Assembly: GCA_964520655.1 (NCBI GenBank)
Contig: CAZFNI010000004.1
Location: 25,628 to 89,627 of the forward strand
Direction: 5' to 3'
Source of the DNA: an uncultured Planctomycetales bacterium
Lineage (GTDB): Bacteria > Omnitrophota > Gorgyraeia > Zapsychrales > Fredricksoniimonadaceae
Length of the DNA: 64,000 bases
Shown here: positions 709 through 49,792 of the stretch, piece by piece
Numbering within the stretch: the first letter of the stretch is position 1
Layout: each line of letters starts with the position of its first letter
Notes under the pieces: generated by a model
What the model was told of the DNA's origin: nothing
Database searches by the model: none
The model's input: the letters and a program-made list of their open reading frames with translations, nothing else
Program-made: the position numbers and the translations under genes

Positions 709-780
709 TCATTTTTCTCATGGTGCGGCCTTAAAAATTCGTTATAATAAAACCAATTCCAATAATTAGTTCGAGGGCTC

Positions 781-2202: not shown

Positions 2203-2211
2203 GAGCAGGAC

Positions 2212-3505: not shown

Positions 3506-6500
3506 ATGTGTTACTCTATAAGCATGCTAAGGAATCTCTTCAGCTACATTATTGTTTTGTGCCTTTTGCCATGTCCGCAAATACATGCCCAGGAGCTGGT
3601 TTTGCCTGTGCCGGGCACCATGGTGTCTTTAAGCCCTGCCTTTAACGCCCCTGTCCTTAAAGGCCTTAAGGTTCATGCGGAGGATCCATTCCGCTTCGAT
3701 TTCATCATTGATCCTGGCAATAACGCGGGGACTCAAGTCAAAGAAGAATCTGCCAAGCTCATCAAATATTTCCTGGCCAGTTTGACCACGCCGGAGAAGG
3801 AACTGTGGGTTAACTTAAGTCCGTATGAAAAAGAACGCATTGTGCCGTCAAGTTTTGGCCAGACAGCAATGGGCCGCGATCTCTTAGCGCAGGATTATAT
3901 TTTAAAGCAATTGACCGCCAGTTTGGTTTATCCCGAAGGGGAGATCGGCAAGAAATTCTGGAAACGGGTCTATGAGATCTCTGCCAATAAGAATGTGCCG
4001 GTCAATACCTTTAACAAAGTTTGGATCGTACCAGGCAAAGCGGTGGTGTATGAGAATGCCAAGGCAGGAACGGCGTATGTCGTTGAGTCCAGACTTAAAG
4101 TCATGACGGAGCAGGATTATTTGGCGACGAGTAAGCATGAAGCAACGGGGCCTGCCGCCGCATCACCTGTTTCGTCCTCGCGCCACCCATCCCCCGGTGG
4201 GGTAGCAGATACAAAAACGACATTTCCCGTGGCGCTGCGGTCAAAACAGGCTGACGCGGCGTCACCCGTTGCTGGCGTATCACAAGTTGTCCGCGAAACC
4301 GAAGGTTCCCTGCAGTCTAATAAAGTGTTGCAGGACATTGTCATCCCGCAGCTGACCAAGGAGGTCAATGAGGGCCAGAGCTTCACTCAGCTGCGCCAGG
4401 TCTATAATGCGCTGATCTTAGCGACGTGGTACAAACAGAAGATCAAGGACAGTATCTTGACCCGTGTGTATGCGGATAAAAACAAGATCAAGGGCACGGA
4501 ATACGCCGATGCCTTAAACGCGCAGGCCATTTATCAGCGCTACCTTCAGGCTTTTAAGAAGGGCGCGTATAATTACATCAAAGAGGAACAGGACCCGGTG
4601 ACGATGCAGATGATCCCGAGGAAGTATTTTTCCGGTGGGGTGCAGCTGGAGTTCGGTAAAGGGATTGACTCTGCCATGGTCGTGACAACAACAAAGCCTG
4701 CGAATATTCGGGGTGACTATTGGGTTGTCGAGAGCGGTTTAAAGAGAATAAAGTTCAATGACAAAGCCATGACGGTTCCTTTGATGAATCCGGATGAATT
4801 CAATGCTTTGATAACACAGATAAATCAAAAGAGACTCACGGTGAATGTCGAAGTTCCTCCCCGTGAACAAGGTGGATTTAATGACGGTGATCGATTTGTG
4901 GTTGCTTATAAATTGGAAGGCCTTGCGTTATTACCGGAAGGGTTGACAAGTAAGATCCCTCAGGGACAGAATTTTGGTGTGAGGATCAGGATGCGCACGA
5001 CGACACCGGCCGAATATAACCCGGTGTTTGAGACCAGGGGATTGTTGTCAGCTTATTACAGGATGGACACAGGGATGATAGAGTTTTTGGTAAAGGGGCA
5101 TCTTACAGAGAGAGAATTAAAAGAAGCCAGGACATCGATCAACCATGAATTTACTCACGCCTTGGTCCTTCATCCGATGACCTCCCAGCAAGTCATGACG
5201 TTAGAAGATCATAATGCTATTTTGACGGGGATGGGTTTTAGGCTTGGGTTTATTGAGAATGGTTTGATCAAGATCCAGGATCGTTTTAATTCTTTTGAGG
5301 AGGTCATCAAGTGGCAATCTGATGGCAAGCGTTTTTATATCAGAGGCAATAACGTGTTGTTGGATGCCAATAATGTCAAGCGATTGAATTATTTCAAACA
5401 GTTCGAACGCAGATTCAATGCCCAGGGGTTAACGATCGAGCCTTACAGCGACAATGCGTCCAATCATTTTATTTCGTCTCCTCAAGAGGTGATCGCATAT
5501 GCAGCCAGTGAAAGCCAGTCTGCGCTTGAGAAAATGTTGAAAGATGTAGGGTATAAGGACAGGGTCACGCAAGTGTACCAGGCTTTGATGCAGATCCTGC
5601 ATAGGAATCTGTTAAGAAGCGCAGAGCCGGTTGGGCGGCATACGGACGGATCGTTAGTGTATGAAATGTATACACCGAGCGCTTTAGACAGTGAGGACGG
5701 ATATGTCACTCAATTAGCAACGGCGCAGTACCTTGGGGTAAGTGACAAGGCCCAGATCTCCAAAGCCGCGTTGGCGGTAGGTGCGGTGGTATTTGCTGGG
5801 GTTTCAGGGGGTATTTATTGGTTAAAGTCGTATCAGGATGAGATGGATGCGATCAAAGCGCGGCCAAGGGTCACGCTGGCAAAGACCAATCCGTTTTATG
5901 ATTCTATGGCGAGAGCCTTAGTAAGAACCCTACCTGGAAGTTCTGAGGAGGCTTCCCTTGCGGGCAGCTCTGTCGATCCCAAGCGTGCTAGTGTGAACAT
6001 CGGCGTGATAGCGGGAGAGAACATCATTCCCAGGGAGTTAAAAATATTGGCGTATAAATATTTGTTTACGACCATGCTCATGCGAATGCCGTCATTGAAT
6101 GTGGATGATATGTTGAGATCTATTGAATCTCAGGATAGTAAGGGATATTTACGAACTGTCGAGAATAAGGAATCTTTTCTGAAATTCTTAAAGGGGCTTA
6201 GTGCGGTCATCACGGCACAGGGTTATATCGGGAAGCTCGAGCTCATTAGCGGCTATGATCTAGGTGCGGTTAAACAACAATGGTTAGCGCTGCATCAAGG
6301 TGAGATCGAAAAGAGTTTAACGAATGTTGAGAATACAAAACAGTTTGATGATCTTCTTGTTGAAGGAATTGCAACGGATGGGGTGATGACTCCAGAAGCT
6401 TTCTTAAAAAGGTTAAAGGACCTGGAGGAACAAGTTAAAGATAATGCCGCGAAGCGCAACATCGCTTTATCATATCCGGAAACCGTCAGATTGATGCGTG

Positions 6501-7003
6501 TGCTTGATCAAGGTGGTTCCATTGATGCTATATTTGAGGCGGGTCAAGCCGGCGTTGATTTTTTACTATCTCAATCATCATTGGGTTCTAGATATTGGGA
6601 TGCAGATAGTTTTGCGCTTTCTTTTAAAGCAGGTGCGGCAAGTGTTTCATCTGTGCGGGATACATTAACAGGAGAGGGCATCCTTCCTACGATCAGAGAA
6701 ATTGCCTTGTTCTTAAAGTTGAGGGCACAAGGGCTGCCCACGGAGGAGATTATATCGAACATCAAAGGACAATTGGCCAAAGAGGAGAAGAAAATTACAG
6801 GAGACCAGGCTCAAACGGCGAAAAAAGGTGGTATTGATTTTAATGCTGACAAAATGGACCTGGAAACCCGCAATCAGGGCGGAGCGATCACCTTTAAGGT
6901 CGATCCCGCGCAATTGAAAGAACTGCAGGACGCTGCCGGCTTTGCCGCGGTCATCATCAGTGTTTCGCCTCTAAAAGACCTTCGCTTATTCCTCGGTATT
7001 TAA
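3506..7003 (+). CDS. Giant secreted protein, paralog 1 (1165 aa): signal peptide + conserved ~370-aa N-domain + unique middle + conserved ~60-aa C-terminal module
   Basis: Signal peptide 'MLRNLFSYIIVLCLLPCPQIHA' (an alternative ATG lies at 3524). The N-domain 'QELVLPVPGTMVSLSPAF...IPRKYFSGGV' is shared with the ORFs at 26159 and 46538. The C-terminus 'GGIDFNADKMDLETRNQGGAITFKVDPAQLKELQDAAGFAAVIISVSPLKDLRLFLGI' is shared with 26159..34462. Confidence 0.8.
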   Translation: MCYSISMLRNLFSYIIVLCLLPCPQIHAQELVLPVPGTMVSLSPAFNAPVLKGLKVHAEDPFRFDFIIDPGNNAGTQVKEESAKLIKYFLASLTTPEKELWVNLSPYEKERIVPSSFGQTAMGRDLLAQDYILKQLTASLVYPEGEIGKKFWKRVYEISANKNVPVNTFNKVWIVPGKAVVYENAKAGTAYVVESRLKVMTEQDYLATSKHEATGPAAASPVSSSRHPSPGGVADTKTTFPVALRSKQADAASPVAGVSQVVRETEGSLQSNKVLQDIVIPQLTKEVNEGQSFTQLRQVYNALILATWYKQKIKDSILTRVYADKNKIKGTEYADALNAQAIYQRYLQAFKKGAYNYIKEEQDPVTMQMIPRKYFSGGVQLEFGKGIDSAMVVTTTKPANIRGDYWVVESGLKRIKFNDKAMTVPLMNPDEFNALITQINQKRLTVNVEVPPREQGGFNDGDRFVVAYKLEGLALLPEGLTSKIPQGQNFGVRIRMRTTTPAEYNPVFETRGLLSAYYRMDTGMIEFLVKGHLTERELKEARTSINHEFTHALVLHPMTSQQVMTLEDHNAILTGMGFRLGFIENGLIKIQDRFNSFEEVIKWQSDGKRFYIRGNNVLLDANNVKRLNYFKQFERRFNAQGLTIEPYSDNASNHFISSPQEVIAYAASESQSALEKMLKDVGYKDRVTQVYQALMQILHRNLLRSAEPVGRHTDGSLVYEMYTPSALDSEDGYVTQLATAQYLGVSDKAQISKAALAVGAVVFAGVSGGIYWLKSYQDEMDAIKARPRVTLAKTNPFYDSMARALVRTLPGSSEEASLAGSSVDPKRASVNIGVIAGENIIPRELKILAYKYLFTTMLMRMPSLNVDDMLRSIESQDSKGYLRTVENKESFLKFLKGLSAVITAQGYIGKLELISGYDLGAVKQQWLALHQGEIEKSLTNVENTKQFDDLLVEGIATDGVMTPEAFLKRLKDLEEQVKDNAAKRNIALSYPETVRLMRVLDQGGSIDAIFEAGQAGVDFLLSQSSLGSRYWDADSFALSFKAGAASVSSVRDTLTGEGILPTIREIALFLKLRAQGLPTEEIISNIKGQLAKEEKKITGDQAQTAKKGGIDFNADKMDLETRNQGGAITFKVDPAQLKELQDAAGFAAVIISVSPLKDLRLFLGI

Positions 7004-26158: not shown

Positions 26159-29100
26159 GTGAAACCCCTTCAACATAGACTTATATCCTTCTTGGCGGCT
26201 ATTGCTTTTGCCGCAACGCTTATTGTCCCCATCCCAAGCCGGGCGGAATTGTTACTACCGGCTCCCGGAACGCTTGTTACTTTAAGTCCTGCCGCTGATC
26301 TTCCCATCTTAAAAGGTATCAAGGTCCATGCTGATAACCCCTTGAAGTTTGAGTTTATTCTGGATAATGGAAGAGAAACAGGTGAGGTGGCGTTAAAGGA
26401 ACAATCCAGCAAACTCATCAAATATTTCCTGGCGAGCTTAACCACGCCTGAGCAGGAGATGTGGGTCAACTTAAGCCCGTATGAAAAAGACCGCATCGTG
26501 CCGGATAGTTTTGGTCAGACCGAAATGGGCCGCGACCTATTGGCTCAGGATTATTTACTCAAGCAGATCACCGCGAGTTTAGTCTATCCGGAAGGGGATA
26601 TTGGCAAACAGTTCTGGAAGAGAGTGTATGAGTTATCGGGGAATAAGAATGTTCCGGTCAACACGTTTAATAAAGTGTGGATCGTCCCGGACAAAGCGGT
26701 GGTGTATGAGAATGCGAAGAATGGTACAGCGTATGTCGTTGAATCATCATTAAAGGTATTAACAGAACAGGATTATCTAGCCCAGGATAAGAATGCGGCG
26801 GGTGGCGCCCAAGCTGTTCGTTTCGCCCGCAGCTTAAGGGGGACAATGGCTTTATCTTCTGCTACCCCACGGGGGGATGGGTTAAGCGAGGACGAAACGA
26901 ATAGTTGGGCGACAGGACCCGCTCATGCTATCCGGGATCTTGTCATCCCTCAACTGACCAAAGAGGTCAATGAAGGTAAGAATTTTGCGCAGCTGCGTCA
27001 GGTTTACAATTCTCTCATTCTTGCCACATGGTACAAGAAGAAGATCAAGGACAGCATCCTCTCCCAGGTTTATGCCGATAAGAACAAGGTAGACGGTATC
27101 ACCATCGATGACCCCAAAGAGAAAGAACGGATATACGCACAGTATTTGGAAGCCTTCAAGAAGGGGGCGTATAACTATATTAAAGAGGAGCGTGATCCCT
27201 TAAGCGGGCAGGTGCTGCCCAGGAAGTATTTTTCCGGCGGGGTAAAATTTGGCGATTTGGCGATGACGACAAGCGCCAAGCCTCCTCAGCAAAATGTTCA
27301 TCAAATTGCGTCTGTTGTAGAAGTAAGGATCGATCAGTTAGGGGCTGGTTTGGATAACGCAATGACTGCGGCTTCTTTGCAGGGGGAGAGGAAAGATCCT
27401 CTTGTTTTAAAAGGCAAGATTGTTGAAAGAGATACATTTAATCATATTTCTTCCATGGTTCGCAGCAGCAGAGAGGCGACCCCTCGTGTATGGGAGATTT
27501 CTGATTTTGAGAAAGTTTTGTCTCATCCACTTCAACTTAAGCAGTTTGTTGATTTGCCTCTAAGCGTTGCGGCTGAAGTGATGATCGTGTATACGGATGA
27601 CGGACGATGGCTTTTTTGTGCAGCTGGGGTAGAGCCTGGTGTTTCCCTTGACCCTTTTAAGGAATTAATTGACCAAAAAAAGATCGTGTTCCATATGCAT
27701 TCGCATCCATATATTCACGAAAATAGAACGTTTGGGGGCAATACATCGGAATATCCATCATTGGTTGATTTAGAATTCTTTGAATATTACGGCGGCATCA
27801 GTGGACATCTATCGAGAGAGGGGTTGACCATTACCAGAATGCCGCCAACGAGATTGTCAGGTGATAAAAGAGGTGGTACCGATTTCCATTATGAATTTAA
27901 ACGTTGGGTGTGGAAGGAATATCCGTGGCTTGATTCTCCATTGGGATTAGGAAAAGAATCTAAAAAGGCCTACAAGGATTACCTTAGATCCATGGATGTG
28001 GATATTAATATTGTGCCTTGGGATGAGGGGGCTTTAAGATCTGCTTTGTCTGGAGCAATCAACCAGGCCATGATGACCAAAGCACGAATCCTTCAAGACC
28101 CCTTACAACCCGCCAGGGATCGCCGTATTCCGTTAGATAAAGAAGCGTTAAAACCGTTGTTAAAAGGGAAAACGATCCTGATCACTGGTGGGGGGGGCTC
28201 TATTGGTTCCGCTTTAGCTTTTGAGATCTTGAAAGAGTTCGGGGATGATATAGAAAAAATTGTTTTGTTTGGTCAAGGCTCAGAAAATCTTGCTAAGGTA
28301 GTGGCGCAAATAAAGGGGATGGAAAGATCCGCGCAGAAAGTTATTGTTGTTACGGGTGATGTGAGCCGTTTAGATCAAATTGAGCCTGTTTTCAAAGAAT
28401 ATAGTCCACAGATCGTTTATCATTTAGCTGCTGAGACATCCCCGGTTATTACTCAAGCAGATCCATCCCGTGCCATCGCAGTGAACGTTTTTGGAACACA
28501 CAATATGGTCGCTTTGGCGGATCGGTATAGCACGGAACATTTTATTTACACATCTTCCAGCAAAGCCACAAATGTTTTACCAGATAGTGTCTTAGGACAA
28601 ACCAAGAGGCTGGCAGAATATCAAGTCCAGTTAAAAGCCAGGAATAGCCGCACCCAATTTGGGATCGTCCGTTTCGTGCATACATTAGATACTAGGGCAA
28701 GCTTGGTCATGAAGATATTCCAAGACAAGATCGACCGCCATGAGCCATTGCCGGTTATGCGGGAGGCGGCTACGTATTTTCAGAATACGCATGAAGCGGT
28801 TAATCTTGCGTTGAATGTCCTTTTACTGTCCCGTAAAGGCGAGATATTTGCCCTGTCGGATGTTGGTCGACCGGTAAAGATTGAGGACATTGCCCGATAT
28901 TTATTATCGCAAAATGGCAAAGGCGATGAGCAGATCAAATTCATTCCCTTAAGAGAAGGGGAAGTTGTTCCTGTTTTTCAACATGAAGATGCAGGAAGGG
29001 CTGTCATAGCGGCGCAAGAGTACAAGGGTGTTCTGGTGGAGAATAAAGCGATCGCAGAAGGTGTGCCGCTTGCGATTGATGGTGCGGTGTTGTCCGAAGG

Positions 29101-32100
29101 GTTGGAAAGGTTGCATAGTAATTTAGGGAACACTGCGGTGGATTTAAAGGCGGAGCTTGTTGAATTGATGAAAGATGTTTATGGATCCATTGATCCTGCT
29201 CAGAAGGCATCAGAAGATGAAAGGCAGGCCTATGTAACAATGTTTAAGGATAAACTATTTGGAAGCAAGAACGGGTTTAACATTACGCTCAAGGGTGGAC
29301 AACGGCTTCCTGTTGTCCTTACTCAATCACAACAACATTTTGTCAGCCATGATCCATATGCGCTGGATATTGTATTGTCTCCTGAGTTTGAAGATAAGGG
29401 CGTATTAGAACAATCATTTCCTGGTTTGGCCTTTTTATATGATTTTACACCGAAAGATGATTTCGCTCCGCCGCAGGGATCCATCGGTCAGGTGGGGGTT
29501 AATATGATCTTCCCTCGAGTGACAATGAAGGAACTATTGGCTCTTGCTAAGGATCCGGACGCTTTTTATGAGTTCAGGATGAATCTTCCCAGCCGGATAT
29601 CCTATGGGGCGATCTATAAGGGGGAACTGGATCTTGATGAGCATCAAGCGAGAATGAAAGAATTTTTTCAGGAGAATTATGAAAAGGTCAGGGAATTATT
29701 TGACAAAATGTATCATCAATCCCCGATCTTGGTGATCACCTATAATCAAGCCAGTGGCGCTCTAAGAAGTTCTTCGAAAAATGGGCGCATGTTTCCAGAA
29801 TGGATTGAGGCCGTGCATCGCCATATATTGGAAGCAGCCTCGTCAATGGGGATTAAGGATATCTATGCCATTCCCTCTGATTTGGCGGCGTTTTTGTATC
29901 CTGGGTTGAAGAATGAAGATGCGCTGCGTTTAATGTATGACCGTCCGTATCAGAGTAAGCCGTATTGGAGGCAGGAGTATGTAAAAGATGATCAGCTGTT
30001 TGGTCAGATCAAAATGGAATATAGGTTAAGCGGTTCATACTTTTGGAAATATCATGCCAATTCCGGTGAAGATCATGCTCAAATATCTGACCCGACGTTG
30101 TTGCTAAACACTAATCAAAAGATATTCAAAAACGGTGTCCGTTTAGTTGAATATCCAAGTAGCGATGATGTGACCTACTATGCCGCGCGCCGCATGGCGG
30201 ATGTTCTGATCACCAATAATGCATTAAAGCGCCAGACGCGGATGATAACACCTACCGGTGGAACATATGAACCGGTGTATGCAGCGTTTGTCCGGATCGT
30301 TAAGGAAGAGGGGATTGATTGTTCGAATTTGATCACATATAACATGGATGAATATTATGTGGGACAAGATGGTGCCAAAGGCCGTTGGGATCAGCATCCG
30401 CAAAGTTACCGTCAGTTCATGGAAAAACATTTATACGCTCCGCTGCGGGAGATCGGATCAGGATGGAATAATGACAATGGGCATGTCTTAAACGGCAATG
30501 CCGTGGACATCGATGCAGAGGTGAGGGCTTATGAGCAGGCGGTGCGTGAGGGAGGGATCGATATCGCTTTTGGCGGCATCGGACGTGATGGGCACATTGC
30601 CTTTAATGAACCGATCATTACTGTTAGTGCGTTTGGTTCCATTGAAGTTGAGAAAGCCAGGGACTTTAATGAGTTTTTATTAGACATCCCTCCGGAGAAA
30701 CAATTAGATCTGTTGGAGGAGGTTTTAACAAAACATTGGGCCGCTCGGCGCTCATCTGTTTTTGCAGAGTATTTAAGAATGAATCTAGTTGTCCCTTATT
30801 TCCCCGCAACGTTGCCGGATGATCTAGCTGCATTTATGGAAAAATTGTTGCGTCAGCCGGTCGTGATCTATTTTAAACATTTAGATGATGATTTTAAAAA
30901 GGTTTTGGAAAAACGTGCCGCTAACTTAGCATCCATGATGGGGGGAGGCTCTGTTACTGTTAAGGAATTAAAAGATCCGGCGGATATGCCGACCCGGGTT
31001 GTTCACCTGGCATTGCCGACATTGTTTGATAACAGCCGTTTTCTTAAAGAGGACATCAAGAACATGCGTGATATCCCGTTGTCCGCATTAACAGTCGGCC
31101 CAGGAACGTTGCGTCATGCTAAAGAAATCGTTGTTGCAGCAACCGGAGCGAAAAAAGCAGAGGCTGTCACCGATGCAGCGTTAAATAAACCAACTCCTGA
31201 TGTTTCGGCGTCCCTGCTTCAAGGGCATCAGAACCTCACGTTTGTTTTTGATACATCTGTAGCAGAGAGCTCAAGGCCGTTGCAACAGGCGTACGCAAAA
31301 GAGGCGAAGATCCTTGATGATCAGCGGTCTCTTCCTCCTTCAGCAGATGCTGCTATGAGGGCGGAGGGTATTTCAGCCAGAGAGAGAGCTGACAAGGCTT
31401 TATATCAAGCCTTGGAGGGAGCTTTGTTCGAATCAGCGAATATGGAACTTCAAGTCAAGGGGTTTGGCAGGGTGCCGCTGAGATTTTCTAAGGCAAGGTT
31501 CCACATGCCAGGGCCATTATTTGCCGATGAGTATCCGTTGGATGTGGTGGTTAGTCCAAAAGAACCGTACACTCAAGAAAAAGTACGTAAGGAAATACTC
31601 CCTCCAATGGATTTTCTTTTTGATGGAAAAGACCCAGGGGCATTTTATCCTCCCAAAGGTTCTTTTGGTCAGATAGGCATTAGTTTGGTGTCTCTGGATC
31701 ATTCGACCGCCTTATTGATCAACTACAATCAGGCAAGCAACGGGTTAAGATCATCTGGCAAGGACGGCCGTCCATTCATTGGTTGGGTTGAAGCGGCCCA
31801 TGAACGTATCATTGAAGCTGCGCGCTCTGTTGGGATACAGCAGATCTATGCGTTGCCAAGCAAGGCGGCCGGTAAGCTCTATTATGGACTTGAGAGCGCT
31901 GATGCTGTTAATCTGGCCTATGAAAAACCTTATCAGAATAAAGAACACTGGAAGGAAGTTGTTGTTGATGAGGAGTTAGCCAGAAAGATCAAGGTTGGAT
32001 TTAATGATCATGAACAGCCGTTCTTATGGAAATATGATCTCGGAACATTAAAAGAAACCCCAGAACTTATAAATGAAGAAGGAGTATCAGCGGATTGGCT

Positions 32101-34462
32101 TCGTGGGATGTTTGAACTTGACTCAGAGGGAAGAATGTCTTTTGCGTCAGGCTTTAACGGTTTGCCGTTATTGTTTGACTTATATTATGTCCGACATGGG
32201 CAGACAAAAGGCAATCTTGAGGGGATCTTACAGGGGCAGCAGGAAACAGCCAACAGTCAGTTGACGGACGAAGGTATTTCACAGGCCAAACAAGCAGCGG
32301 TAAAACTGTTTGATCAATTGGGGCTGGCAAAGTCAAAACCTTCCCGCTCATTGGTCATTGTGACTAGCCAACTTAACCGGACCAAAGAAACGGCGGATTT
32401 CTTTGTCCAGATGCTTAAGGATCATGGTGTTCCATTTGAGATCGTCGATGATCAGTTACAGCGATTGATCAATGAATTAAATGTTGGCGCGATGGGCAAT
32501 AAGAAAGAGTTGATGCCGCAGGAGCAGGATCTATTGAAGCGATACATGGCAGCCAATGCGAAGGAAAAATTCCCTCGAGGGGAAAGTTTTGTAGATCTGA
32601 TCCTTCGCGCAAGGCAATGGCTGTTGAAAATGAATGAACAGTATCAAGGTCGCACGGTCGTTGTGTTTGGTCACGGTAATCAAAGCGGCGCACTGCGGGC
32701 TTTATTGGGCGACCGGACAATCCTTAATGGAGAGGGAAGCGTCGACTGGATCAATAATAAACTTCCTAATGCATTGCCGGTGCAGTTAAGTTCCGGATTT
32801 AAGGCTGATGCGGCAATGCGTGCGGAAGATATTTTTGATTTCGAGAAAGATGAATTGAAAGTGGTTGTGTTAGAACGGAAATTACAGGAAGTGATGTTGA
32901 AGGTCAACAATGGAGGAAGGGCGATCATTGTCGGTGGGACAAGATATTTTAATAGCGGACAACGTAAAGATGTCGATGTTTTGTTAAAAGGGATGGATAT
33001 GTTCAGTCAAGGCGGCAGCTTTGTGGCCGCCTTAAAAGAAATGCTGCTTGCCTATGAGGGTGTGCGTATTGATGATGTGATCGATCTAAGAAAGCGCAGG
33101 GTGATTATAAAATTCACTCTTCTTGGGGAGAATCATCAGAGTCGTTCATTATCTATTGATCTGATCGGATTCTTCGATGGAGATGATGCTGCGTTGGTCA
33201 GAAGGCTTAAAGAAGTCGCGGTGAATGGTTTTCGCATGCATATCTCTAACGCGGAGTATGAGGATAAGTTTAATGAGCTGGCAGTAAAAGATTATTTTGA
33301 GGTTGAGTATTACTTAGGCGACCGCACGGTTTATGAGCAAATGCTTGGCAAGTTCAAAGATCCCGTAACAATAGGAGAATTTTATAAACCGGATGGTCTG
33401 ATGGCCAACAGGATGATGGAGCTAAGGTCTAAAGTGCAGGGTCTGACTGATCAACAGATCGCTGAGGCAGTCGATGCGAAATTGGCTGTCTCCGCTGACA
33501 TGGCCCAGCGTGTAGGAGAACCACTGGCGCCTTTCAAGGGATTTAATTTATCGTCACAGCAAATGAGCCGCTTGGCGGATTTTTTAGGTGTTCCTCAGGA
33601 TGTTCTAGAAAACGAGAATTTAGTGCCTCAGCATCCGGAAAGGCCGTCATTAACCTCGCGACAGACTTTTAAATATACCTATTTAGGGAAGGAGTTTTAT
33701 GTAAAGTCTGGTCCGGATTACGAAACATTATTGGAAGAAGCAAAAACAGCCAACGTTGTCCATAATAGCGGTTTGTCAACTCAGGCAGCGGTCGTTGGGA
33801 ATAATATGCTGTTGCTCCCAGAAGAACTGCGCGATAAATATGCGGATCCAGCGATCGCTAGAACTAAGGGATTTATGCTTGTAACAAAAGGAGCCCAGGG
33901 AGAAAGCTGGTTCTCGATATTAAAAAAAGGGAATAAGATCACTTATCAGATGGTCGTGGATTTGGCAAGAGCCATGGGAAGGCTTCATGCCCAAGGATTA
34001 GCGCATAATGATCTATACAGTCAAACAGAAGGTTTTAAAACGGAACATATCTTCCAAACAAGTCAAGGTGTTGAGTTTATTGATTTTGGATTGACTTCGA
34101 GGCTTTGGCCTCAAATCTTTCATGAATCAGAAAAAAAAGCTGTTTGGCAGGCATTAAGCCGTATGGTTGATGCACAAACAGGCGGCGAGACATTAAAAAA
34201 AGTCTTTGATGACGCCTATCTTCAAGGATTTCAAGATAGTGAGCGTAGGCCTGTTTCTGGAGATGCGGCCATGGCAAAAGGCGGGATTGATCTTAATGCA
34301 GGGAAATTGGACCTTCAAACCCGCCATGAGGGGAAGGGATTGGAGTTTAAGACTGATCCGGCCTTGCTGAAAAGGCTTCAAAATGCCTCTGGATTTACCC
34401 CTGTGATCATCAATATCCGCCCCTTAGGGGATTTGAACGTCTTTCTAGGTGTCAGCGGTTAA
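26159..34462 (+). CDS. Giant secreted multi-domain protein, paralog 2 (2767 aa): conserved N-domain, CapD-like dehydratase, NagB-like, His-phosphatase, kinase-like, conserved C-module
   Basis: GTG start. Signal peptide 'MKPLQHRLISFLAAIAFAATLIVPIPSRA'. The N-domain is shared with 3506 and 46538. 'KGKTILITGGGGSIGSALAFEIL'+'TKRLAEY' indicate a CapD/WbpM-type NAD Rossmann domain. 'ITPTGGTYEP...NMDEYYVG...GGIGRDGHIAFNEP' indicates NagB. 'LYYVRHGQTKGN' with a downstream 'VVFGHGN' indicates a histidine phosphatase. 'LAHNDL...IDFGL' indicates a protein-kinase-like domain. The C-module reads 'GGIDLNAGKLDLQTRHEG...DLNVFLGVSG'. Confidence 0.8.
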   Translation: MKPLQHRLISFLAAIAFAATLIVPIPSRAELLLPAPGTLVTLSPAADLPILKGIKVHADNPLKFEFILDNGRETGEVALKEQSSKLIKYFLASLTTPEQEMWVNLSPYEKDRIVPDSFGQTEMGRDLLAQDYLLKQITASLVYPEGDIGKQFWKRVYELSGNKNVPVNTFNKVWIVPDKAVVYENAKNGTAYVVESSLKVLTEQDYLAQDKNAAGGAQAVRFARSLRGTMALSSATPRGDGLSEDETNSWATGPAHAIRDLVIPQLTKEVNEGKNFAQLRQVYNSLILATWYKKKIKDSILSQVYADKNKVDGITIDDPKEKERIYAQYLEAFKKGAYNYIKEERDPLSGQVLPRKYFSGGVKFGDLAMTTSAKPPQQNVHQIASVVEVRIDQLGAGLDNAMTAASLQGERKDPLVLKGKIVERDTFNHISSMVRSSREATPRVWEISDFEKVLSHPLQLKQFVDLPLSVAAEVMIVYTDDGRWLFCAAGVEPGVSLDPFKELIDQKKIVFHMHSHPYIHENRTFGGNTSEYPSLVDLEFFEYYGGISGHLSREGLTITRMPPTRLSGDKRGGTDFHYEFKRWVWKEYPWLDSPLGLGKESKKAYKDYLRSMDVDINIVPWDEGALRSALSGAINQAMMTKARILQDPLQPARDRRIPLDKEALKPLLKGKTILITGGGGSIGSALAFEILKEFGDDIEKIVLFGQGSENLAKVVAQIKGMERSAQKVIVVTGDVSRLDQIEPVFKEYSPQIVYHLAAETSPVITQADPSRAIAVNVFGTHNMVALADRYSTEHFIYTSSSKATNVLPDSVLGQTKRLAEYQVQLKARNSRTQFGIVRFVHTLDTRASLVMKIFQDKIDRHEPLPVMREAATYFQNTHEAVNLALNVLLLSRKGEIFALSDVGRPVKIEDIARYLLSQNGKGDEQIKFIPLREGEVVPVFQHEDAGRAVIAAQEYKGVLVENKAIAEGVPLAIDGAVLSEGLERLHSNLGNTAVDLKAELVELMKDVYGSIDPAQKASEDERQAYVTMFKDKLFGSKNGFNITLKGGQRLPVVLTQSQQHFVSHDPYALDIVLSPEFEDKGVLEQSFPGLAFLYDFTPKDDFAPPQGSIGQVGVNMIFPRVTMKELLALAKDPDAFYEFRMNLPSRISYGAIYKGELDLDEHQARMKEFFQENYEKVRELFDKMYHQSPILVITYNQASGALRSSSKNGRMFPEWIEAVHRHILEAASSMGIKDIYAIPSDLAAFLYPGLKNEDALRLMYDRPYQSKPYWRQEYVKDDQLFGQIKMEYRLSGSYFWKYHANSGEDHAQISDPTLLLNTNQKIFKNGVRLVEYPSSDDVTYYAARRMADVLITNNALKRQTRMITPTGGTYEPVYAAFVRIVKEEGIDCSNLITYNMDEYYVGQDGAKGRWDQHPQSYRQFMEKHLYAPLREIGSGWNNDNGHVLNGNAVDIDAEVRAYEQAVREGGIDIAFGGIGRDGHIAFNEPIITVSAFGSIEVEKARDFNEFLLDIPPEKQLDLLEEVLTKHWAARRSSVFAEYLRMNLVVPYFPATLPDDLAAFMEKLLRQPVVIYFKHLDDDFKKVLEKRAANLASMMGGGSVTVKELKDPADMPTRVVHLALPTLFDNSRFLKEDIKNMRDIPLSALTVGPGTLRHAKEIVVAATGAKKAEAVTDAALNKPTPDVSASLLQGHQNLTFVFDTSVAESSRPLQQAYAKEAKILDDQRSLPPSADAAMRAEGISARERADKALYQALEGALFESANMELQVKGFGRVPLRFSKARFHMPGPLFADEYPLDVVVSPKEPYTQEKVRKEILPPMDFLFDGKDPGAFYPPKGSFGQIGISLVSLDHSTALLINYNQASNGLRSSGKDGRPFIGWVEAAHERIIEAARSVGIQQIYALPSKAAGKLYYGLESADAVNLAYEKPYQNKEHWKEVVVDEELARKIKVGFNDHEQPFLWKYDLGTLKETPELINEEGVSADWLRGMFELDSEGRMSFASGFNGLPLLFDLYYVRHGQTKGNLEGILQGQQETANSQLTDEGISQAKQAAVKLFDQLGLAKSKPSRSLVIVTSQLNRTKETADFFVQMLKDHGVPFEIVDDQLQRLINELNVGAMGNKKELMPQEQDLLKRYMAANAKEKFPRGESFVDLILRARQWLLKMNEQYQGRTVVVFGHGNQSGALRALLGDRTILNGEGSVDWINNKLPNALPVQLSSGFKADAAMRAEDIFDFEKDELKVVVLERKLQEVMLKVNNGGRAIIVGGTRYFNSGQRKDVDVLLKGMDMFSQGGSFVAALKEMLLAYEGVRIDDVIDLRKRRVIIKFTLLGENHQSRSLSIDLIGFFDGDDAALVRRLKEVAVNGFRMHISNAEYEDKFNELAVKDYFEVEYYLGDRTVYEQMLGKFKDPVTIGEFYKPDGLMANRMMELRSKVQGLTDQQIAEAVDAKLAVSADMAQRVGEPLAPFKGFNLSSQQMSRLADFLGVPQDVLENENLVPQHPERPSLTSRQTFKYTYLGKEFYVKSGPDYETLLEEAKTANVVHNSGLSTQAAVVGNNMLLLPEELRDKYADPAIARTKGFMLVTKGAQGESWFSILKKGNKITYQMVVDLARAMGRLHAQGLAHNDLYSQTEGFKTEHIFQTSQGVEFIDFGLTSRLWPQIFHESEKKAVWQALSRMVDAQTGGETLKKVFDDAYLQGFQDSERRPVSGDAAMAKGGIDLNAGKLDLQTRHEGKGLEFKTDPALLKRLQNASGFTPVIINIRPLGDLNVFLGVSG

Positions 34463-34514: not shown

Positions 34515-35534
34515 ATGAATAAATACCATACTATTATAAATAAATTCAAAGGCAAGCGTCTGCTTGTCATCGGCGACTTGGTGCTGGATCAGTATATTAA
34601 GGGTTCGGTCAGCCGGATTTCGCCGGAAGCCCCTGTCCCTATTGTGGTTCAGGAAGATTCGTTCTTTACGCCTGGCGGGGCGGCCAATGTGGCCAATAAC
34701 TTAAGCAGTTTGGGTGCGGATGTGACCTTGGTGGGCAAGGTGGGAGATGATATTGAAGGAGCGGTCTTAAAGAAGGAATTGACTCGCCGCCATATCCACA
34801 CCAATGGTGTTTTTATTGATCCAGACATGGAAACCATTTTCAAGACCCGCATCATTGCCCAGCAGCAGCAAGTGGTGCGCGTGGACCGGGAAACACTGGG
34901 TCTTTCCAACGACAAGATGTTTGCCGGGCATATTTTGCCGTTCTTGCAGAAACATTTTACCAGTTACGACGCCGTGATCGTTTCGGATTACGGTTAAGTG
35001 ATCGTGGATATTAAGCTGATGGCTTCCATCCATGACATGGCGCTTAAACATAAGATTCCCGTCGTAGTTGATCCTAAATTCGAAGATCTGCGGGCTTACG
35101 GTGTGGTTAGCAGCATCACCCCTAACAAGAAAGAAGCAGAAGCGGCATTGAAGGCGATCACTGACAGCGCCCGAAAAGCCTTTGGTATCATTTCGGTCAA
35201 GCTCGATAGAAAAGAAGATATTGAAAAGAATGGTCAGGGCTTACTTGCTTATTTAGGGATTGATTCGCTGCTAATTACTTTGGGCGAGCAGGGGATGTAT
35301 TTATTTGAGCATAATCGCAAGCCGTTCCCTATTGCCACCCGCGCTCAGGAAGTTTTTGATGTCAGCGGTGCTGGGGATACGGTTATTTCGGTTTTTGCCT
35401 TGTGTTTGGCGGCCAAAGCCAATCGGCGCGCGGCGGCGGATATCGCCAATTACGCTGCCGGGGTTGTTGTTGGTAAGATGGGGGCTGTCGCGATCGAATT
35501 GGATGAGTTAAAGCGGGCGGTTAAAAAGGCATGA
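34515..35534 (+). pseudogene. hldA: D-glycero-beta-D-manno-heptose-7-phosphate kinase (RfaE domain I / HldA-like, ribokinase family) interrupted by an in-frame TAA at 34995-34997
   Basis: The two adjacent ORFs (34515..34997 and 34998..35534) are in the same frame and align end-to-end with one kinase: '...VSDYG*VIVD...' versus E. coli HldE domain I '...VLSDYAKGAL...' (recalled from memory, not checked). The second half carries the ribokinase-family motif 'DVSGAGDT'. A GTG codon immediately follows the stop. Confidence 0.55.
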
Positions 35535-46537: not shown

Positions 46538-49500
46538 ATGTTAGGAAAAAAACATCCCATCTTTCATTTAATGCTGGCGGCGGTTCTGGCCATGGGTTTT
46601 GATCCCTCTCTGGTCTTGGCCGAAGAGCTTGTTGTTCCGGCAATGCCCAAGGCTGGGACGATGGTCTTTTTAAGTCCGGCGTTTCAACCGGCAACTGTCA
46701 TGGGCATGACCATTTCTCCGAAGGATCCGTTTCAATTTGATTTTTTGATACAGCGGGGAGATGGGGTTTATGATGAAACATCGAAACAGCAGGAATACCG
46801 CAAACTTATCAAATATTTTCTGGCCGCGTTAACGGTCCCCGACCATGATCAGTGGGTCAATCTTTCTCCCTATGAACAAAACCGCATTATCGAAGAACCA
46901 TTCGGCCGGACAGAAATGGGTCGGGACCTTTTGGCTCAAGATTATTTGCTCAAGCAGATCACTTCATCCTTGATGTACCCCGGAGCAGGCCTGGGTCAGG
47001 CATTTTGGGACAGGGTCTATGCGCAGGCAGGCAGTGCTTTGGGCAAGAGGGATATACCGGTCAATGCTTTCCATAAAGTATGGATCGTTCCCGACGATGT
47101 TGTTATCTACGAAAATCGTCAGGGCGCGGTCATTTTAAAGAGTCATTTGAAGATTATGCTTGAAGAAGATTACTTATCTTCTCTGAAGCATAAAGCGGGT
47201 GACGCCCAAGCTCATTTTATTGCCCGCAGCCCCAGGGGGACAATGGCTTCATCTCCTGCTACCCCACGGGGGGATGGGTGGGGCGAGGACAAGAAAATGA
47301 GTTTGGCGGCAGGACCCGCTCTTGCTAGCCAGGTTATGCGTGACATTATTCTCCCTGAACTTGAGAAAGAAGTGAATGAGGGCAAGAACTTCGCGCCGCT
47401 GCGCCAGATCGTCAGCGCGATGCTGATGGCCACCTGGTATAAAAAAGCGTTAAAAGGATCGCTGCTGGGTCAAGTTTACGCGGATAAAGGCAAAGTCGGC
47501 GGTGTATCCAGCGACCCAAAGAATATTGAAAAGATCTACGCACAATACCTGGATGCGTTTAAGAAGGGGGTCTTTAATCTGATCAAAGAGGATCAAGACC
47601 AGCTGACCCATCAGGTGATCCCCAGGAAATATTTTGCCGGCGGTTTCAGCCGTGACGAGGCGATGGTCACCTATGTGGGAAGCGCTTCTGGTGATGAAGT
47701 GGACCTAGGGGATGGTAGAGAGCGTTTAATGGCGATTGCTGCGAGAAAACATGTGCGGCTTAGCGAAGTGTTGAGAGCCAGTCCGCGCATATTGCCAGAG
47801 CTGATCGTTGAGACGCTGCTGTATGGATTATTTTGGAAGGTCATCGATCGCGCGCGGGTGAATATGGATGAATCGAGAGGCGGAGCCATGATCATTGTTG
47901 GTAAGCCAAAAGAGCCGGTTGTTGCGCCTTCTTCTTCGATCACGACATTGTCAGGTGACACGCGATCAAGATTCTCTCAGCTGGTTAATCTTAATATTGA
48001 AGAAGCGTTCCATACAACTGGGACAGGCAGTCTCCATGAGCTTTTAGGGGTCAAGTCAGAAGCGGCGATCGGTTATCCCGCACTCGAGGAGCTTGTCATT
48101 TTACCGAATAAGATAGTCGGGGGGTATAAGATCTCGGCACAACCTCAAGCCAATATTTTTCTAACGATCAATGATGCGAAGTATGTATTTGCTTATAATG
48201 AACTTTCCACCGAGGATAAAAGGCAGTATGTGCTGTTCGCTGATGATCGGGAGATCGGCCGTTTCGATTTTTCTGTCCCGCTTGTCATCCGAAAAGACCT
48301 TATCCCGGCAGAACTTGTGCCGCTGTTGATCCAGGGGGATAGTCCTGTCCTTAAGGAACATCCTCAAAATAAGAAAGAGCTCTACGCGATATTGGATTTT
48401 GAAGGACTGATGAGGCTTATTTTAGAGAATGAAAAGTCTCTGATAAAGCTAAAAGAGCATATGCGTCTGCAGGATGTGTCCTTTACAGATACCCGTGGCG
48501 TTGTGGTGAATTTAACGATCGCGGTGCGCAGGGGCAAAGACGGAGGCGCTGATCTGTATTTGTTCCCGCGCAATGGAGAGAAATTGCCGCCTATTTGGCA
48601 GCTGGCTGTGCCGGCCTTCGATGCGGCGATGTCTGTTGATGGTGATGAGGTCACCCAGGCGATTCATGGACGTTTCGGCGAAATGATCTTAGAGTCTTTA
48701 CGCTTGCCGGGCAAGGTGAATATCGGGGATCGTTCATACGAGGCTGTTGCTGGAGGGAAAGGGGTGCAGCTTAAGGGGCTCAACGATTCCCGGGAGATCC
48801 GTCCCATTCTCTCTTCGGATGCTCTGTTGAGATATGGTTTTGTAAAAAGAGCGGTCAATGCGCTGCAGGCCAAAGGTCTGGTGATCAAAGATGATGACAA
48901 CAATATCGCGTTGGATCCGGATATTCAATTGCGAGATTTCAATGATGTTTTTAATGTGTCATTTACCCAGGAAGCCAGGCGGCTTAATTTGGATGCGGAT
49001 GAGATCAGGGGGATGCTCCTTGGGACCATTGGTTATGTGCTCAAGGTCCAGGAACGTAATGTCCAGGGGTATTCCGGCGTATGTGTGGTCTTAAGCAAAG
49101 ACGGTGTTTCGCTGCGCATCCTGACATTTGCCGGCAGTGAACCTGCGGTCTCTTTTTCCAGGACGAGACCTCCGCAGGAGATCATCGTTTCCCAGATGGC
49201 AGCAGGGCTGAAAGCCATTAAGGCCAGGGAAGGGCGGTACATCGGGGTTGTGAATTCAAAAGGCTCTGTGAGGTATTTTGATGAAAAAGAAGCGGAAGGT
49301 TTTGCGGATATTTATGCCGCCAGGATGATCATCCTCGAGAGAAACTTTAACTGGAAAGTTACGCGTGAACAGATCATGAAAATGATCTTTAAGGGTGAGA
49401 TCATCCCGTTCCAATTCACCGTTGCCAAAGACGGTTCTGTGGCATTTTCCAATGTGGGTAAACAGTCGATATTCTCTAAGAATGTGACAAGTATGGCGAA

Positions 49501-49792
49501 GGAGGGGGAGCTGCTGGCTGCTTTACTTAACCAGGATGCTGCGCAGGCCTCTAATGCGGATGATCTAGGGGGTATTGACCTGGATCCCGCCCACTTTAAT
49601 ATGCGTATCAAGCGTGATGCCGAAGGGGTTGTTTTACCTGCGGCGCTGCAGGACTTGAAATATTTTGAGAATATCCAGGGGCTGGTCCCTAATATTCTTG
49701 AGATCAAACCCGCCGAGGATGTTCCTATCCTTCGTGAGATCCAGCAAGAGATCAAGGTTGGCGTACAAACGCCTCATATCCCCGCGAACTGA
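46538..49792 (+). CDS. Giant secreted protein, paralog 3 (1084 aa): signal peptide + conserved N-domain + unique middle + divergent C-terminal module
   Basis: Signal peptide 'MLGKKHPIFHLMLAAVLAMGFDPSLVLA'. The N-domain 'EELVVPAMPKAGTMVFLSPAF...IPRKYFAGGF' is collinear with the other two paralogs. The C-terminus 'LGGIDLDPAHFNMRIKRDAEGVVLPAALQDLKYFENIQGLVPNILEIKP' is a divergent copy of the C-module. Confidence 0.8.
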   Translation: MLGKKHPIFHLMLAAVLAMGFDPSLVLAEELVVPAMPKAGTMVFLSPAFQPATVMGMTISPKDPFQFDFLIQRGDGVYDETSKQQEYRKLIKYFLAALTVPDHDQWVNLSPYEQNRIIEEPFGRTEMGRDLLAQDYLLKQITSSLMYPGAGLGQAFWDRVYAQAGSALGKRDIPVNAFHKVWIVPDDVVIYENRQGAVILKSHLKIMLEEDYLSSLKHKAGDAQAHFIARSPRGTMASSPATPRGDGWGEDKKMSLAAGPALASQVMRDIILPELEKEVNEGKNFAPLRQIVSAMLMATWYKKALKGSLLGQVYADKGKVGGVSSDPKNIEKIYAQYLDAFKKGVFNLIKEDQDQLTHQVIPRKYFAGGFSRDEAMVTYVGSASGDEVDLGDGRERLMAIAARKHVRLSEVLRASPRILPELIVETLLYGLFWKVIDRARVNMDESRGGAMIIVGKPKEPVVAPSSSITTLSGDTRSRFSQLVNLNIEEAFHTTGTGSLHELLGVKSEAAIGYPALEELVILPNKIVGGYKISAQPQANIFLTINDAKYVFAYNELSTEDKRQYVLFADDREIGRFDFSVPLVIRKDLIPAELVPLLIQGDSPVLKEHPQNKKELYAILDFEGLMRLILENEKSLIKLKEHMRLQDVSFTDTRGVVVNLTIAVRRGKDGGADLYLFPRNGEKLPPIWQLAVPAFDAAMSVDGDEVTQAIHGRFGEMILESLRLPGKVNIGDRSYEAVAGGKGVQLKGLNDSREIRPILSSDALLRYGFVKRAVNALQAKGLVIKDDDNNIALDPDIQLRDFNDVFNVSFTQEARRLNLDADEIRGMLLGTIGYVLKVQERNVQGYSGVCVVLSKDGVSLRILTFAGSEPAVSFSRTRPPQEIIVSQMAAGLKAIKAREGRYIGVVNSKGSVRYFDEKEAEGFADIYAARMIILERNFNWKVTREQIMKMIFKGEIIPFQFTVAKDGSVAFSNVGKQSIFSKNVTSMAKEGELLAALLNQDAAQASNADDLGGIDLDPAHFNMRIKRDAEGVVLPAALQDLKYFENIQGLVPNILEIKPAEDVPILREIQQEIKVGVQTPHIPAN

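Follow-up and report, generated by a model that had tools for sequence, protein, structure and literature searches.

The window considered here, which is the whole stretch of DNA that was analysed, comprises 64,000 nucleotides (nt) of contig CAZFNI010000004.1 (assembly GCA_964520655.1) from an uncultured bacterium of the phylum Omnitrophota. Its gene G2 is a complete open reading frame (ORF) that starts with GTG, ends with a stop codon at positions 34460–34462 and encodes a protein of 2767 amino acids (aa). G2 almost certainly belongs to a large protein family with a shared plan, and it possesses all five family features: a signal peptide, a conserved N-terminal domain (N-domain) that ends with PRKYFSGG, D-x-A-M junctions, a C-terminal module (C-module) that starts with GGID, and a depletion of cysteine. 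A preliminary description had presented G2 as a signal-peptide-bearing chain of cytoplasmic-type enzyme domains, and in this it is borne out: the 2767-aa protein is real, it is encoded by a single intact ORF, and its N-terminus has signal-peptide features. Absent from that description were the nine junctions, the paralogous modules repA and repB, a JAMM-like and a nucleotidyltransferase-like module, and the fact that the plan is common to thousands of proteins.

The G2 gene and its protein family

A protein identical to G2, P0001, is present in the public protein collection (proteins of this collection are given P numbers). The GC content within the G2 ORF is 0.42–0.49 without an abrupt break and lies slightly below that of the flanks, and no internal DNA repeats were found in G2. 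The gene neighbourhood is as previously described. The upstream neighbour is ppc, and downstream there follow, in order, a PfkB kinase gene, kdsB, kdsA, kdsD, kdsC, an LptC/LptA fusion and lptB. The proposed link of G2 to this 3-deoxy-D-manno-octulosonate (Kdo) and lipopolysaccharide (LPS) operon does not hold, as ppc, kdsA or kdsB stands beside a family gene in none of the 80 related loci from other genomes. The position of G2 beside ppc and the Kdo/LPS genes is not a conserved one, and genes of this family should not be read as part of an adjacent operon in annotation.

When G2 was used as the query, a word-index search of the public protein collection matched more than 1875 proteins. The best 120 of these, 1531–3663 aa long, form the homolog set. 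Nearly all of them align to only about 13% of G2, namely to its N-terminal ~360 residues, with 43–79% identity. An exhaustive HMMER scan, run with the N-domain alone against 1.84 billion representatives, returned 7,961 clusters at 50% identity, 6,141 of them at E ≤ 1e-30, and among the 150 best matches the N-domain starts within the first ~90 residues, mostly at residues 25–45. The fusion, which had been taken for a rarity, is therefore not a one-off in the phylum. At least 594 family loci are present in the GTDB species representatives (one genome per species). The 80 that were kept as the genome-locus set all come from metagenome-assembled genomes (MAGs) labelled Omnitrophota/Omnitrophica or 'uncultured Planctomycetales' (third-party-annotation bins), and a single MAG contributes up to nine of them. 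Complete family members in these loci are ~390–3,080 aa long and ORFs running off contig ends reach ~3,700 aa, the length of G2 being in the upper tail of the family.

The N-domain has no fold or family match in Pfam, NCBIfam or the PDB, and its AlphaFold2 (AF2) model shows a mixed alpha/beta fold. The C-module has been found in 117 of the 120 homologs, with a family consensus of ~60 residues that reads GGIDL..(N).G..IKFHLDPAML.QLQNAPGFVPVIINIQP..DL..FLG, and has no Pfam or NCBIfam match. Neither the N-domain nor the C-module has a match in PHROG. The family is thus huge (~8,000 clusters at 50% identity, with many copies per genome) yet lies outside Pfam and NCBIfam, and the searchable literature contains no description of the N-domain, the D-x-A-M motif or the C-module. 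A tiling with cytoplasmic-type enzymes is already on record for secreted or membrane-targeted giants of Omnitrophota whose length is 10,000 aa or more. What is new, as far as databases and papers show, is the defined family with its head and tail domains, its D-x-A-M junction and its cysteine depletion.

A full-length model of G1, a paralog of G2 in the window, was made from a 46-sequence alignment for docking of the N-domain with the C-module, and its mean predicted local distance difference test (pLDDT) score is only 47.9. A C-module profile search, which asked if the C-module caps giant proteins, returned 66 short fragments only, and one such fragment on a long contig is a collapsed family member. 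This collapsed member is seen on two contigs (L081, 5502–6255; L082, 2942–3695) as a 156-aa ORF that carries the signal peptide plus the initial third of the N-domain and, after it, a separate 84-aa ORF with the C-module only, the entire cargo region being deleted. Within the N-domain of G2, a low-confidence loop at aa ~210–255 (26780–26920) contains TPRGDG. G2, P0006 and P0009 have nearly the same sequence in this loop, G3 has a similar one, and unrelated loops occupy its place in other genomes.

Table 1. Features of G2, its paralogs and the gene set upstream of G1, in window coordinates (HMM, hidden Markov model; SDR, short-chain dehydrogenase/reductase; TM, transmembrane; T2SS/T4P, type II secretion system/type IV pilus)
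Feature	Position	Strand	Basis or remark
G2	26159..34462	+	complete ORF, 2767 aa, GTG start
Sec-type signal peptide, aa 1-29 (MKPLQHRLISFLAAIAFAATLIVPIPSRA, followed by EL)	26159..26245	+	sequence features
Conserved N-domain, aa 30-365, ending PRKYFSGG	26246..27253	+	family head, ~335 aa
Paired junction DLAM (aa 366-369) and DNAM (aa 399-402), 29-aa spacer	27254..27364	+	pLDDT <50
Cargo module 1, aa 403-634, JAMM-like E...HxHP...PSxxD	27365..28060	+	motif only
Junction NQAM (Asn variant), aa 635-638	28061..28072	+	
Cargo module 2, aa 639-1011, PglF/CapD-type extended SDR	28073..29191	+	PF02719, PglF alignment
Junction DPAQ, aa 1012-1015	29192..29203	+	
Cargo module 3 (repA), aa 1016-1304, no assigned domain	29204..30070	+	repB paralog
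Junction DHAQ, aa 1305-1308	30071..30082	+	homology-block start with P0003, P0007, P0002
Cargo module 4, aa 1309-1729, NagB-like glucosamine-6-phosphate deaminase	30083..31345	+	HMM and alignment
Junction DAAM, aa 1730-1733	31346..31357	+	
Cargo module 5a (repB), aa 1734-2000, no assigned domain	31358..32158	+	repA paralog
Cargo module 5b, aa 2001-2216, histidine phosphatase branch 1	32159..32806	+	PF00300, PhoE alignment
Junction DAAM, aa 2217-2220	32807..32818	+	homology blocks end/start here
Cargo module 6, aa 2221-2446, nucleotidyltransferase-like GG...DxD motif	32819..33496	+	motif only
Junction DMAQ, aa 2447-2450	33497..33508	+	
Cargo module 7, aa 2451-2701, kinase-like (FYVK, LLEE, HND, DFG)	33509..34261	+	sub-cut-off matches
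Junction DAAM, aa 2702-2705	34262..34273	+	7 residues before GGID
Conserved C-module, aa 2706-2767 (GGIDLN...FKTDPALL..LQNASGFTPVIINIRP..DL..FLG)	34274..34459	+	alignment
G1	3506..7003	+	1165 aa; signal peptide, N-domain, junctions, HExxH module, one TM-like segment, C-module
G3	46538..49792	+	1084 aa; family plan, divergent C-module
GspK-like gene	13-708	+	T2SS/T4P-like set
PilM+PilN fusion	781-2202	+	T2SS/T4P-like set
Small TM protein	2212-2763	+	T2SS/T4P-like set
TPR protein	2760-3491	+	T2SS/T4P-like set

Cargo modules and D-x-A-M junctions

Four enzyme domains had been named in the preliminary description. Three of them, the SDR, NagB and histidine-phosphatase domains, are confirmed by profile matches, and the kinase-like domain stays below the cut-offs. 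Module 2 matches Polysacc_synt_2 (PF02719) over aa 673–935 (nt 28175–28963) with E = 1e-46 and 267 of 293 profile positions, and its best PDB match is PglF/WlaL (2.5e-31). The NAD motif GxxGxxG of this SDR module is intact, TGGGGSIGS of G2 aligning to SGAGGTIGS of PglF (5bju). T395, D396 and K397 of PglF, which we take to be the catalytic residues of the dehydration, read S-S-K in G2 in the 5bju alignment, the catalytic Asp being replaced by Ser. Consistent with a catalytic role, the PDB point variants 5bjv–5bjy differ from the wild type at this triad. The position of the SDR YxxxK motif reads LxxxK in G2 and MxxxK in PglF.

The NagB match of module 4 is split into aa 1328–1487 and aa 1596–1700, with an insertion of ~120 aa after the NEP motif. 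The match to TIGR00502 has an E-value of 2e-44 and a score of 152 bits, which is below the equivalog cut-off of 236.9. The catalytic residues of NagB (D72, D141, H143 and E148 in E. coli numbering) all have their counterparts in G2, with NMDEY and GGIGRDGHIAFNEP aligning to E. coli 1cd5. The insertion-bearing module is also present in P0002–P0005, P0007, P0018 and P0023, and its NagB motifs are kept in P0002–P0005 and P0007 save for single substitutions in P0002 and P0005. Its score below the cut-off and its split match place the NagB module of G2 in a divergent subfamily common to P0002–P0005 and P0007. A search with the NagB module for related polyproteins brought back only ordinary standalone NagB proteins. 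Module 5b matches His_Phos_1 (PF00300) over aa 2008–2181 (E = 1e-22), and the residues R, H, R, E and H of histidine phosphatases are all kept in VRHGQT, NRTKETA, NELNVG and FGHG, as aligned to PhoE (1h2e). Among the proposed enzymes, NagB (4/4) and the histidine phosphatase (5/5) thus retain their catalytic residues, and the SDR does not. Because their active-site residues are kept, the NagB and histidine-phosphatase modules appear to be under selection as enzymes.

Module 7 matches Pfam Kdo with an E-value of 0.06 in the whole protein and 0.003 as an excised segment, and NCBIfam Bud32 with 8e-4, all below the curated cut-offs. Against PDB kinases, E is ~0.05 over the catalytic-loop stretch only. 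The K, E, HND and DFG elements are present in this kinase-like module, with the catalytic-loop Asn off its expected place. Module 1 has no Pfam, NCBIfam or PDB profile match, and the E, H, H, P and D of its motif are invariant in a three-sequence alignment with P0020 and P0025. Modules repA and repB resemble each other (BLASTP, E = 7e-37); repA has no Pfam or NCBIfam match, and repB-related segments are present in P0012 and P0041. Module 6 has no significant PDB or Pfam match and is recurrent in the family, with homologs in P0002, P0014, P0015 and P0052.

The cargo varies widely across the family. The precomputed Pfam domains of the homologs include HATPase_c, methyltransferases, GNAT, His_Phos, HEAT, TPR, WD40 and response-regulator receivers as well as SNF2 helicases, MutS, GGDEF, PLD, HAD, NUDIX, PfkB, ROK, metallophosphoesterase, deaminase and glycosyl hydrolase. 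Conflict-type cargo is seen in P0017 (ART-PolyVal), P0028 (a PLD pair), P0087 (a MafB19-like deaminase) and P0074 (an SNF2 helicase together with a methyltransferase). Zincin-type HExxH motifs occur 36 times against 4.7 expected (7.7-fold), in 29 of the 120 proteins. BLAST comparison of G2 with 119 family members has shown that the shared blocks begin and stop at junctions, to within about 15 residues, in both partners. For the NagB block, a subject junction lies within ~16 residues of the boundary in P0003 (upstream end only), P0004, P0005 and P0007, and the downstream end of most histidine-phosphatase blocks and one end of each nucleotidyltransferase-like block are also bounded by junctions. 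The order of the shared modules differs among family proteins. Because homology blocks begin and end at junctions and the order differs, modules are exchanged as motif-bounded units, swapped whole between paralogs.

G2 carries nine D/N-x-A-M/Q junctions (Table 1), none of which lies inside a Pfam domain. In the 120 homologs, D.A[MQ] is observed 600 times against 74 expected from shuffles. The residue after D.A is Met in 432 cases against 25.8 expected (16.8-fold); Gln is enriched 1.8-fold, and almost all other residues are depleted. Consistently, N-domain ORFs in the independent genome loci contain 144 D.AM motifs against 10.5 expected, whereas the other large ORFs of these loci (700 aa or longer) contain 6 against 3.9. 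The flanks of 407 interior sites are linker-like, being rich in G, S, P and T before the motif and reading [TN][SAT] after it. A beta-strand that would always precede D-x-A-M had been suspected from the element after the N-domain and from the C-module; it was rejected because the logo of these 407 sites shows linker-like flanks only. Junctions are often paired, 10–40 residues apart, and most homologs have one junction 5–30 residues before GGID.

Synonymous codon positions vary at the junctions of G1–G3, and no Shine-Dalgarno-like sequence is found upstream of the junction ATGs in these genes. The constraint on D-x-A-M therefore acts on the peptide and not on the DNA or on translation initiation. 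For the same two reasons, and because of the Gln variants, internal translation starts at the junction ATGs (an 'operon without stops') were rejected, as was a DNA-level recombination signal, against which the lack of DNA repeats in G2 also speaks. Directly behind junctions, signal-like hydrophobic segments are enriched 4-fold over background, yet they follow only ~3% of all junctions. Tat-like (twin-arginine translocation) signals start at the junction Met in P0107 (aa ~744–790 and ~1259–1300) and P0105 (aa ~1280–1315), with sequences such as MTRRNFL..., MKVTRRTLL... and TRRAVL.... A lipoprotein-like signal (MKSSK...LSGC) starts at a junction Met of P0102 (aa ~910–940), its lipobox Cys being one of four Cys. 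P0107, P0105 and P0102 also bear an N-terminal Sec signal.

Probable export and proposed processing and delivery

The N-terminus of G2 consists of a basic n-region and a hydrophobic stretch at aa 8–26 (Kyte-Doolittle value, KD, 2.29), followed by SRA/EL, and from these features it looks like a Sec signal peptide. The stretch at aa 8–26 is the only hydrophobic one in the 2767 residues, and G2 has no TM segment, lipobox or sortase-type anchor. A hydrophobic segment lies ahead of the N-domain in 93 of 101 homologs. The AxA-type site is likewise widespread, position −1 being Ala in 91 of 99 homologs and position −3 Ala or Val in 87 of 99.

A shortage of cysteine typically marks proteins that pass through membranes in an unfolded state or are located in oxidising surroundings; autotransporter passengers, RTX proteins and type III substrates are examples. 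G2 contains two cysteines in 2767 residues (0.07%). The 120 homologs average 0.11%, 15 of them lacking cysteine altogether, whereas the other 43 genes of the window average 0.80%, so that the family is ~7-fold poorer in cysteine than neighbouring genes. Other genomes show the same, with 0.18% in N-domain ORFs against 0.80% in neighbouring large ORFs. The depletion is uniform across the modules of G2, and tryptophan is not depleted in the family. Standalone NagB proteins of Omnitrophota have 1–5 Cys per ~260 residues. The family protein is very likely exported via Sec, to judge from these sequence features. Cysteine depletion combined with a conserved signal peptide argues that the whole chain, including its cytoplasmic-type modules, leaves the cytoplasm and that the enzyme modules have long evolved under this constraint.

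We tentatively regard G2 as an exported multi-effector carrier, probably processed at its junctions and analogous to polyvalent proteins and MARTX toxins. The chain would be threaded unfolded through SecYEG and would remain outside the producer's cytoplasm. D-x-A-M would then mark proteolytic processing sites that free the modules, and a role of the junction as a cleavage site is nearly as easy to argue for as against. Candidate proteases would be the peptidase modules of the family (HExxH modules including that of G1, and the JAMM-like module of G2) or a dedicated envelope protease. The freed enzymes would act where NAD, ATP and sugar phosphates are supplied, namely in the cytoplasm of a host or prey, since their substrates and cofactors, such as glucosamine-6-phosphate (GlcN6P), NAD and ATP, are intracellular. 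Delivery into the cytoplasm of another cell is accordingly worth considering, with some doubt. A GlcN6P deaminase and a histidine phosphatase would form the payload of G2 together with a kinase-like domain, a PglF-like domain that binds NAD but is without the dehydratase Asp, and four further modules that are uncharacterised. A delivered effector had been the second of two readings in the preliminary description, and it comes close to the view favoured here, export being supported and delivery conjectural. Rather unlikely is the broader proposal that the family is the substrate set of a new Omnitrophota delivery route, in which the proteins would be exported via Sec, the N-domain together with the C-module would take the chain across the outer membrane and into host or prey, and D-x-A-M cleavage would free dozens of enzymes per genome.

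Several observations weigh against the carrier reading. No secretion partner (TpsB/Omp85, type I secretion system (T1SS) or autotransporter barrel) adjoins G2, and a general link between the family and T2SS-like genes was rejected because such genes accompany only G1 and 1–2 of the 80 loci. Cysteine depletion indicates an extracytoplasmic or unfolded-transit constraint, not delivery. The carrier role of the N-domain and C-module is a purely positional argument, neither having a recognisable fold or family, and cleavage, outer-membrane crossing and target-cell entry are steps that we infer. Much of the cargo in the family is housekeeping-like or regulatory-like and not toxin-like (response regulators, HEAT/TPR, ROK, DHQ synthase, transketolase), and the PglF-like module of G2 has lost its catalytic Asp. 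In addition, Tat-like, lipoprotein-like or TM-like segments directly follow junctions in a few members. Such post-junction signals would fit a cleavage before export, which clashes with the cysteine depletion of the signal-less modules.

The last point leads to a cytoplasmic polyprotein, or 'fused operon', in which D-x-A-M would be cut in the producer's cytoplasm, signal-bearing modules would be exported individually, and enzymes without a signal, among them NagB, the SDR and the phosphatase, would do their work inside the producer. Such a scheme would account for the invariant junction Met, as if it were the first residue of each module, for the enrichment of signal-like segments after junctions and for the complete-looking Tat and lipoprotein signals in P0107, P0105 and P0102, and the modules of G2 make a plausible amino-sugar pathway set. 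We nevertheless consider it improbable. The signal-less modules are as poor in cysteine as the rest, unlike the standalone NagB proteins, the near-universal Sec signal, N-domain and C-module would have no role, and a hydrophobic segment follows too few junctions. Independent initiation at the junctions is unlikely without Shine-Dalgarno sequences. Equally small is the likelihood of the first reading in the preliminary description, an assembly line for the cell's own envelope, in which G2 would reside in the periplasm or on the surface of the producer and its sugar modules would remodel LPS or glycans together with the adjacent Kdo/LPS genes. The identifiable modules of G2 are all related to sugars or phospho-transfer, export is supported, G2 adjoins hldA-kdsB-kdsA-kdsD-kdsC-lptCA-lptB, and genes for an STT3-type oligosaccharyltransferase and a PIG-L deacetylase are present in the window. 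However, ppc, kdsA and kdsB are absent from beside the family genes of all 80 loci, and a dedicated sugar-metabolism line is hard to reconcile with sugar-related domains in four of the eight cargo modules of G2 and with a cargo that is freely exchanged in the family and unrelated to glycans in paralogs. Furthermore, the PglF-like module is without its catalytic Asp, and the periplasm is not known to provide GlcN6P, NAD(P) or ATP.

A surface coat or extracellular scaffold has a similarly low probability. In that case the proteins would stay unprocessed, their modules would bind ligands or catalyse reactions outside the cell on material from lysed or attached cells, and D-x-A-M would be a docking or linker motif. 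Export and cysteine depletion agree with such a role, as do an SDR that has lost a catalytic residue while keeping its nucleotide-binding motif and the glycosyl hydrolase, HEAT, TPR and WD40 modules of some members; a coat and the processing of prey polymers have been proposed for giant Omnitrophota proteins (PMC10066038; bioRxiv 10.1101/2023.11.21.568195). On the other hand, NagB and the histidine phosphatase, which depend on intracellular substrates, retain their catalytic residues, the SNF2, MutS, GGDEF, HATPase, deaminase and ART cargo needs nucleotides or nucleic acids, and G2 has no TM segment or anchor by which it could be held. Finally, the gene might be an artefact, either a chimeric misassembly of a secreted-protein gene with a cytoplasmic multi-enzyme gene, as the preliminary description had allowed for, or a decaying fusion without function. 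The assembly is of metagenome type, G2 has a single copy in the collection, and its GC content lies slightly under that of the flanks. An artefact is very improbable indeed, because both ends and all nine internal boundaries match the plan of thousands of independent assemblies, the 8.3-kb frame is open with no repeats and no compositional break, catalytic residues are kept, and cysteine depletion extends uniformly over the modules.

The carrier reading of G2 can be compared with several known systems. MARTX toxins of Vibrio and relatives release their effector domains by cleavage in inter-domain linkers. Like MARTX toxins, the family proteins have conserved N- and C-terminal regions around a variable, shuffled array of cytosolic-type effectors, and they are very large and cysteine-poor. 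MARTX toxins differ in having a C-terminal T1SS signal, glycine-rich RTX-type repeats and a cysteine protease that is activated by inositol hexakisphosphate (InsP6) and cuts after Leu, whereas a Pfam scan of G2 gave no RTX or Peptidase_C80 match and G2 has an N-terminal Sec-type signal instead. Viral polyproteins likewise consist of folded modules with short conserved linear motifs in flexible linkers and a long unbranched residue (Gln or Met). Unlike them, the G2 family has no viral context and no recognised cognate protease, and its cleavage is putative.

The logic described for polyvalent proteins is that a single chain brings in many activities at once, which an embedded metallopeptidase then cuts apart (PMC5512222; Iyer, Burroughs, Anand, de Souza and Aravind 2017). 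A polyvalent protein combines 2–15 biochemically unrelated domains in one polypeptide (PMC5512222), and G2 has eight cargo modules. ART-PolyVal, the pairing of an SNF2 helicase with a methyltransferase, and zincin-like HExxH motifs are further points of likeness. However, polyvalent proteins are encoded by mobile elements and travel with DNA through a phage tail or conjugation apparatus, and they are without the Sec signal, the common head and tail domains and the D-x-A-M junction of the G2 family. In the G2 family the genes are located on the chromosome, at scattered sites and in several copies, in a bacterium that is free-living or episymbiotic, and the neighbours of G2 are housekeeping genes. 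TpsA/CdiA proteins (PMC3482391) resemble the family in their Sec signal, conserved N-terminal domain of ~250–330 aa and very long cysteine-poor passenger, and are likewise polymorphic and multi-copy. They have a beta-helix TPS domain (PF05860), an adjacent TpsB, and variation only in the C-terminal toxin, downstream of which lies an immunity gene, whereas the G2 family has a mixed alpha/beta N-domain, an internal variable part of many modules and a conserved C-terminus. G2 has no PF05860 match, and no TpsB gene is adjacent, its neighbours being ppc and the PfkB kinase gene.

Omnitrophota are widespread, uncultured, ultra-small bacteria that are thought to be predators or parasites. They have been proposed to depend on hosts and to secrete giant proteins (PMC10066038; bioRxiv 10.1101/2023.11.21.568195). 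For giants with a length of 10,000 aa or more, secretion or membrane targeting and a tiling by cytoplasmic-type Pfam domains have been reported (Nielsen and Lui 2026, bioRxiv 10.64898/2026.06.07.730766). The G2 family shares with them the phylum, the signal peptide or membrane targeting, and the tiling by methyltransferase, HATPase, GNAT, HAD, NUDIX and sugar-enzyme domains. The giants are defined by their length, have about one TM helix per 370 aa and are mostly unique sequences, whereas G2 with its 2767 aa is below the giant threshold and its family spans 0.4–3.7 thousand aa, mostly without internal TM segments. The papers on giant proteins (10.64898/2026.06.07.730766; 10.1101/2023.11.21.568195) do not mention a shared N-domain, a junction motif or a C-module. 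West-Roberts et al. 2023 suspected cleavage of giant proteins, without information on the cleavage points (bioRxiv 10.1101/2023.11.21.568195). If D-x-A-M is proven to be a cleavage site, it could provide the missing cleavage grammar for Omnitrophota giant proteins. Head, D-x-A-M, tail and cysteine depletion together form a sequence grammar that makes cut sites, export and co-travelling modules testable, and the delivery route, if true, would place beside polyvalent proteins and MARTX toxins a counterpart that is chromosomally encoded and Sec-dependent.

Paralogs and neighbouring genes in the window

Three paralogs of the family, G1, G2 and G3, are present in the window. G1 and G2 are 57% identical over the N-domain and 36% identical over the C-terminal region (BLASTP). 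G1 has an HExxH motif (INHEFTHAL) at about aa 545, in a module that is also found in P0119, and a TM-like segment at aa 755–775 directly after a DKAQ junction. A T2SS/T4P-like gene set (13–3491, + strand) ends directly upstream of G1. This set stands beside a family gene also in locus L028 and partly in L015, and not in the rest of the 80 loci. A gene for an STT3/PglB-type oligosaccharyltransferase (7227–9695, − strand) adjoins G1, and close homologs of it are located near family genes in L028, L015 and L063.

A 1084-aa ORF at 18448–21702 (+) is outside the G2 family and has neither a Pfam match nor a signal-peptide-like N-terminus. Directly downstream of G2, the gene for the PfkB-family (hldA-like) kinase (34515–35534, +) contains an in-frame TAA at 34995–34997. 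The two resulting ORFs correspond to the N- and C-terminal halves of PF00294, and the interruption may reflect a pseudogene, an error in sequencing or a true split of the gene. Further downstream, a 282-aa ORF at 38586–39434 (+) fuses an LptC-like domain with an LptA/LptD_N-like domain.

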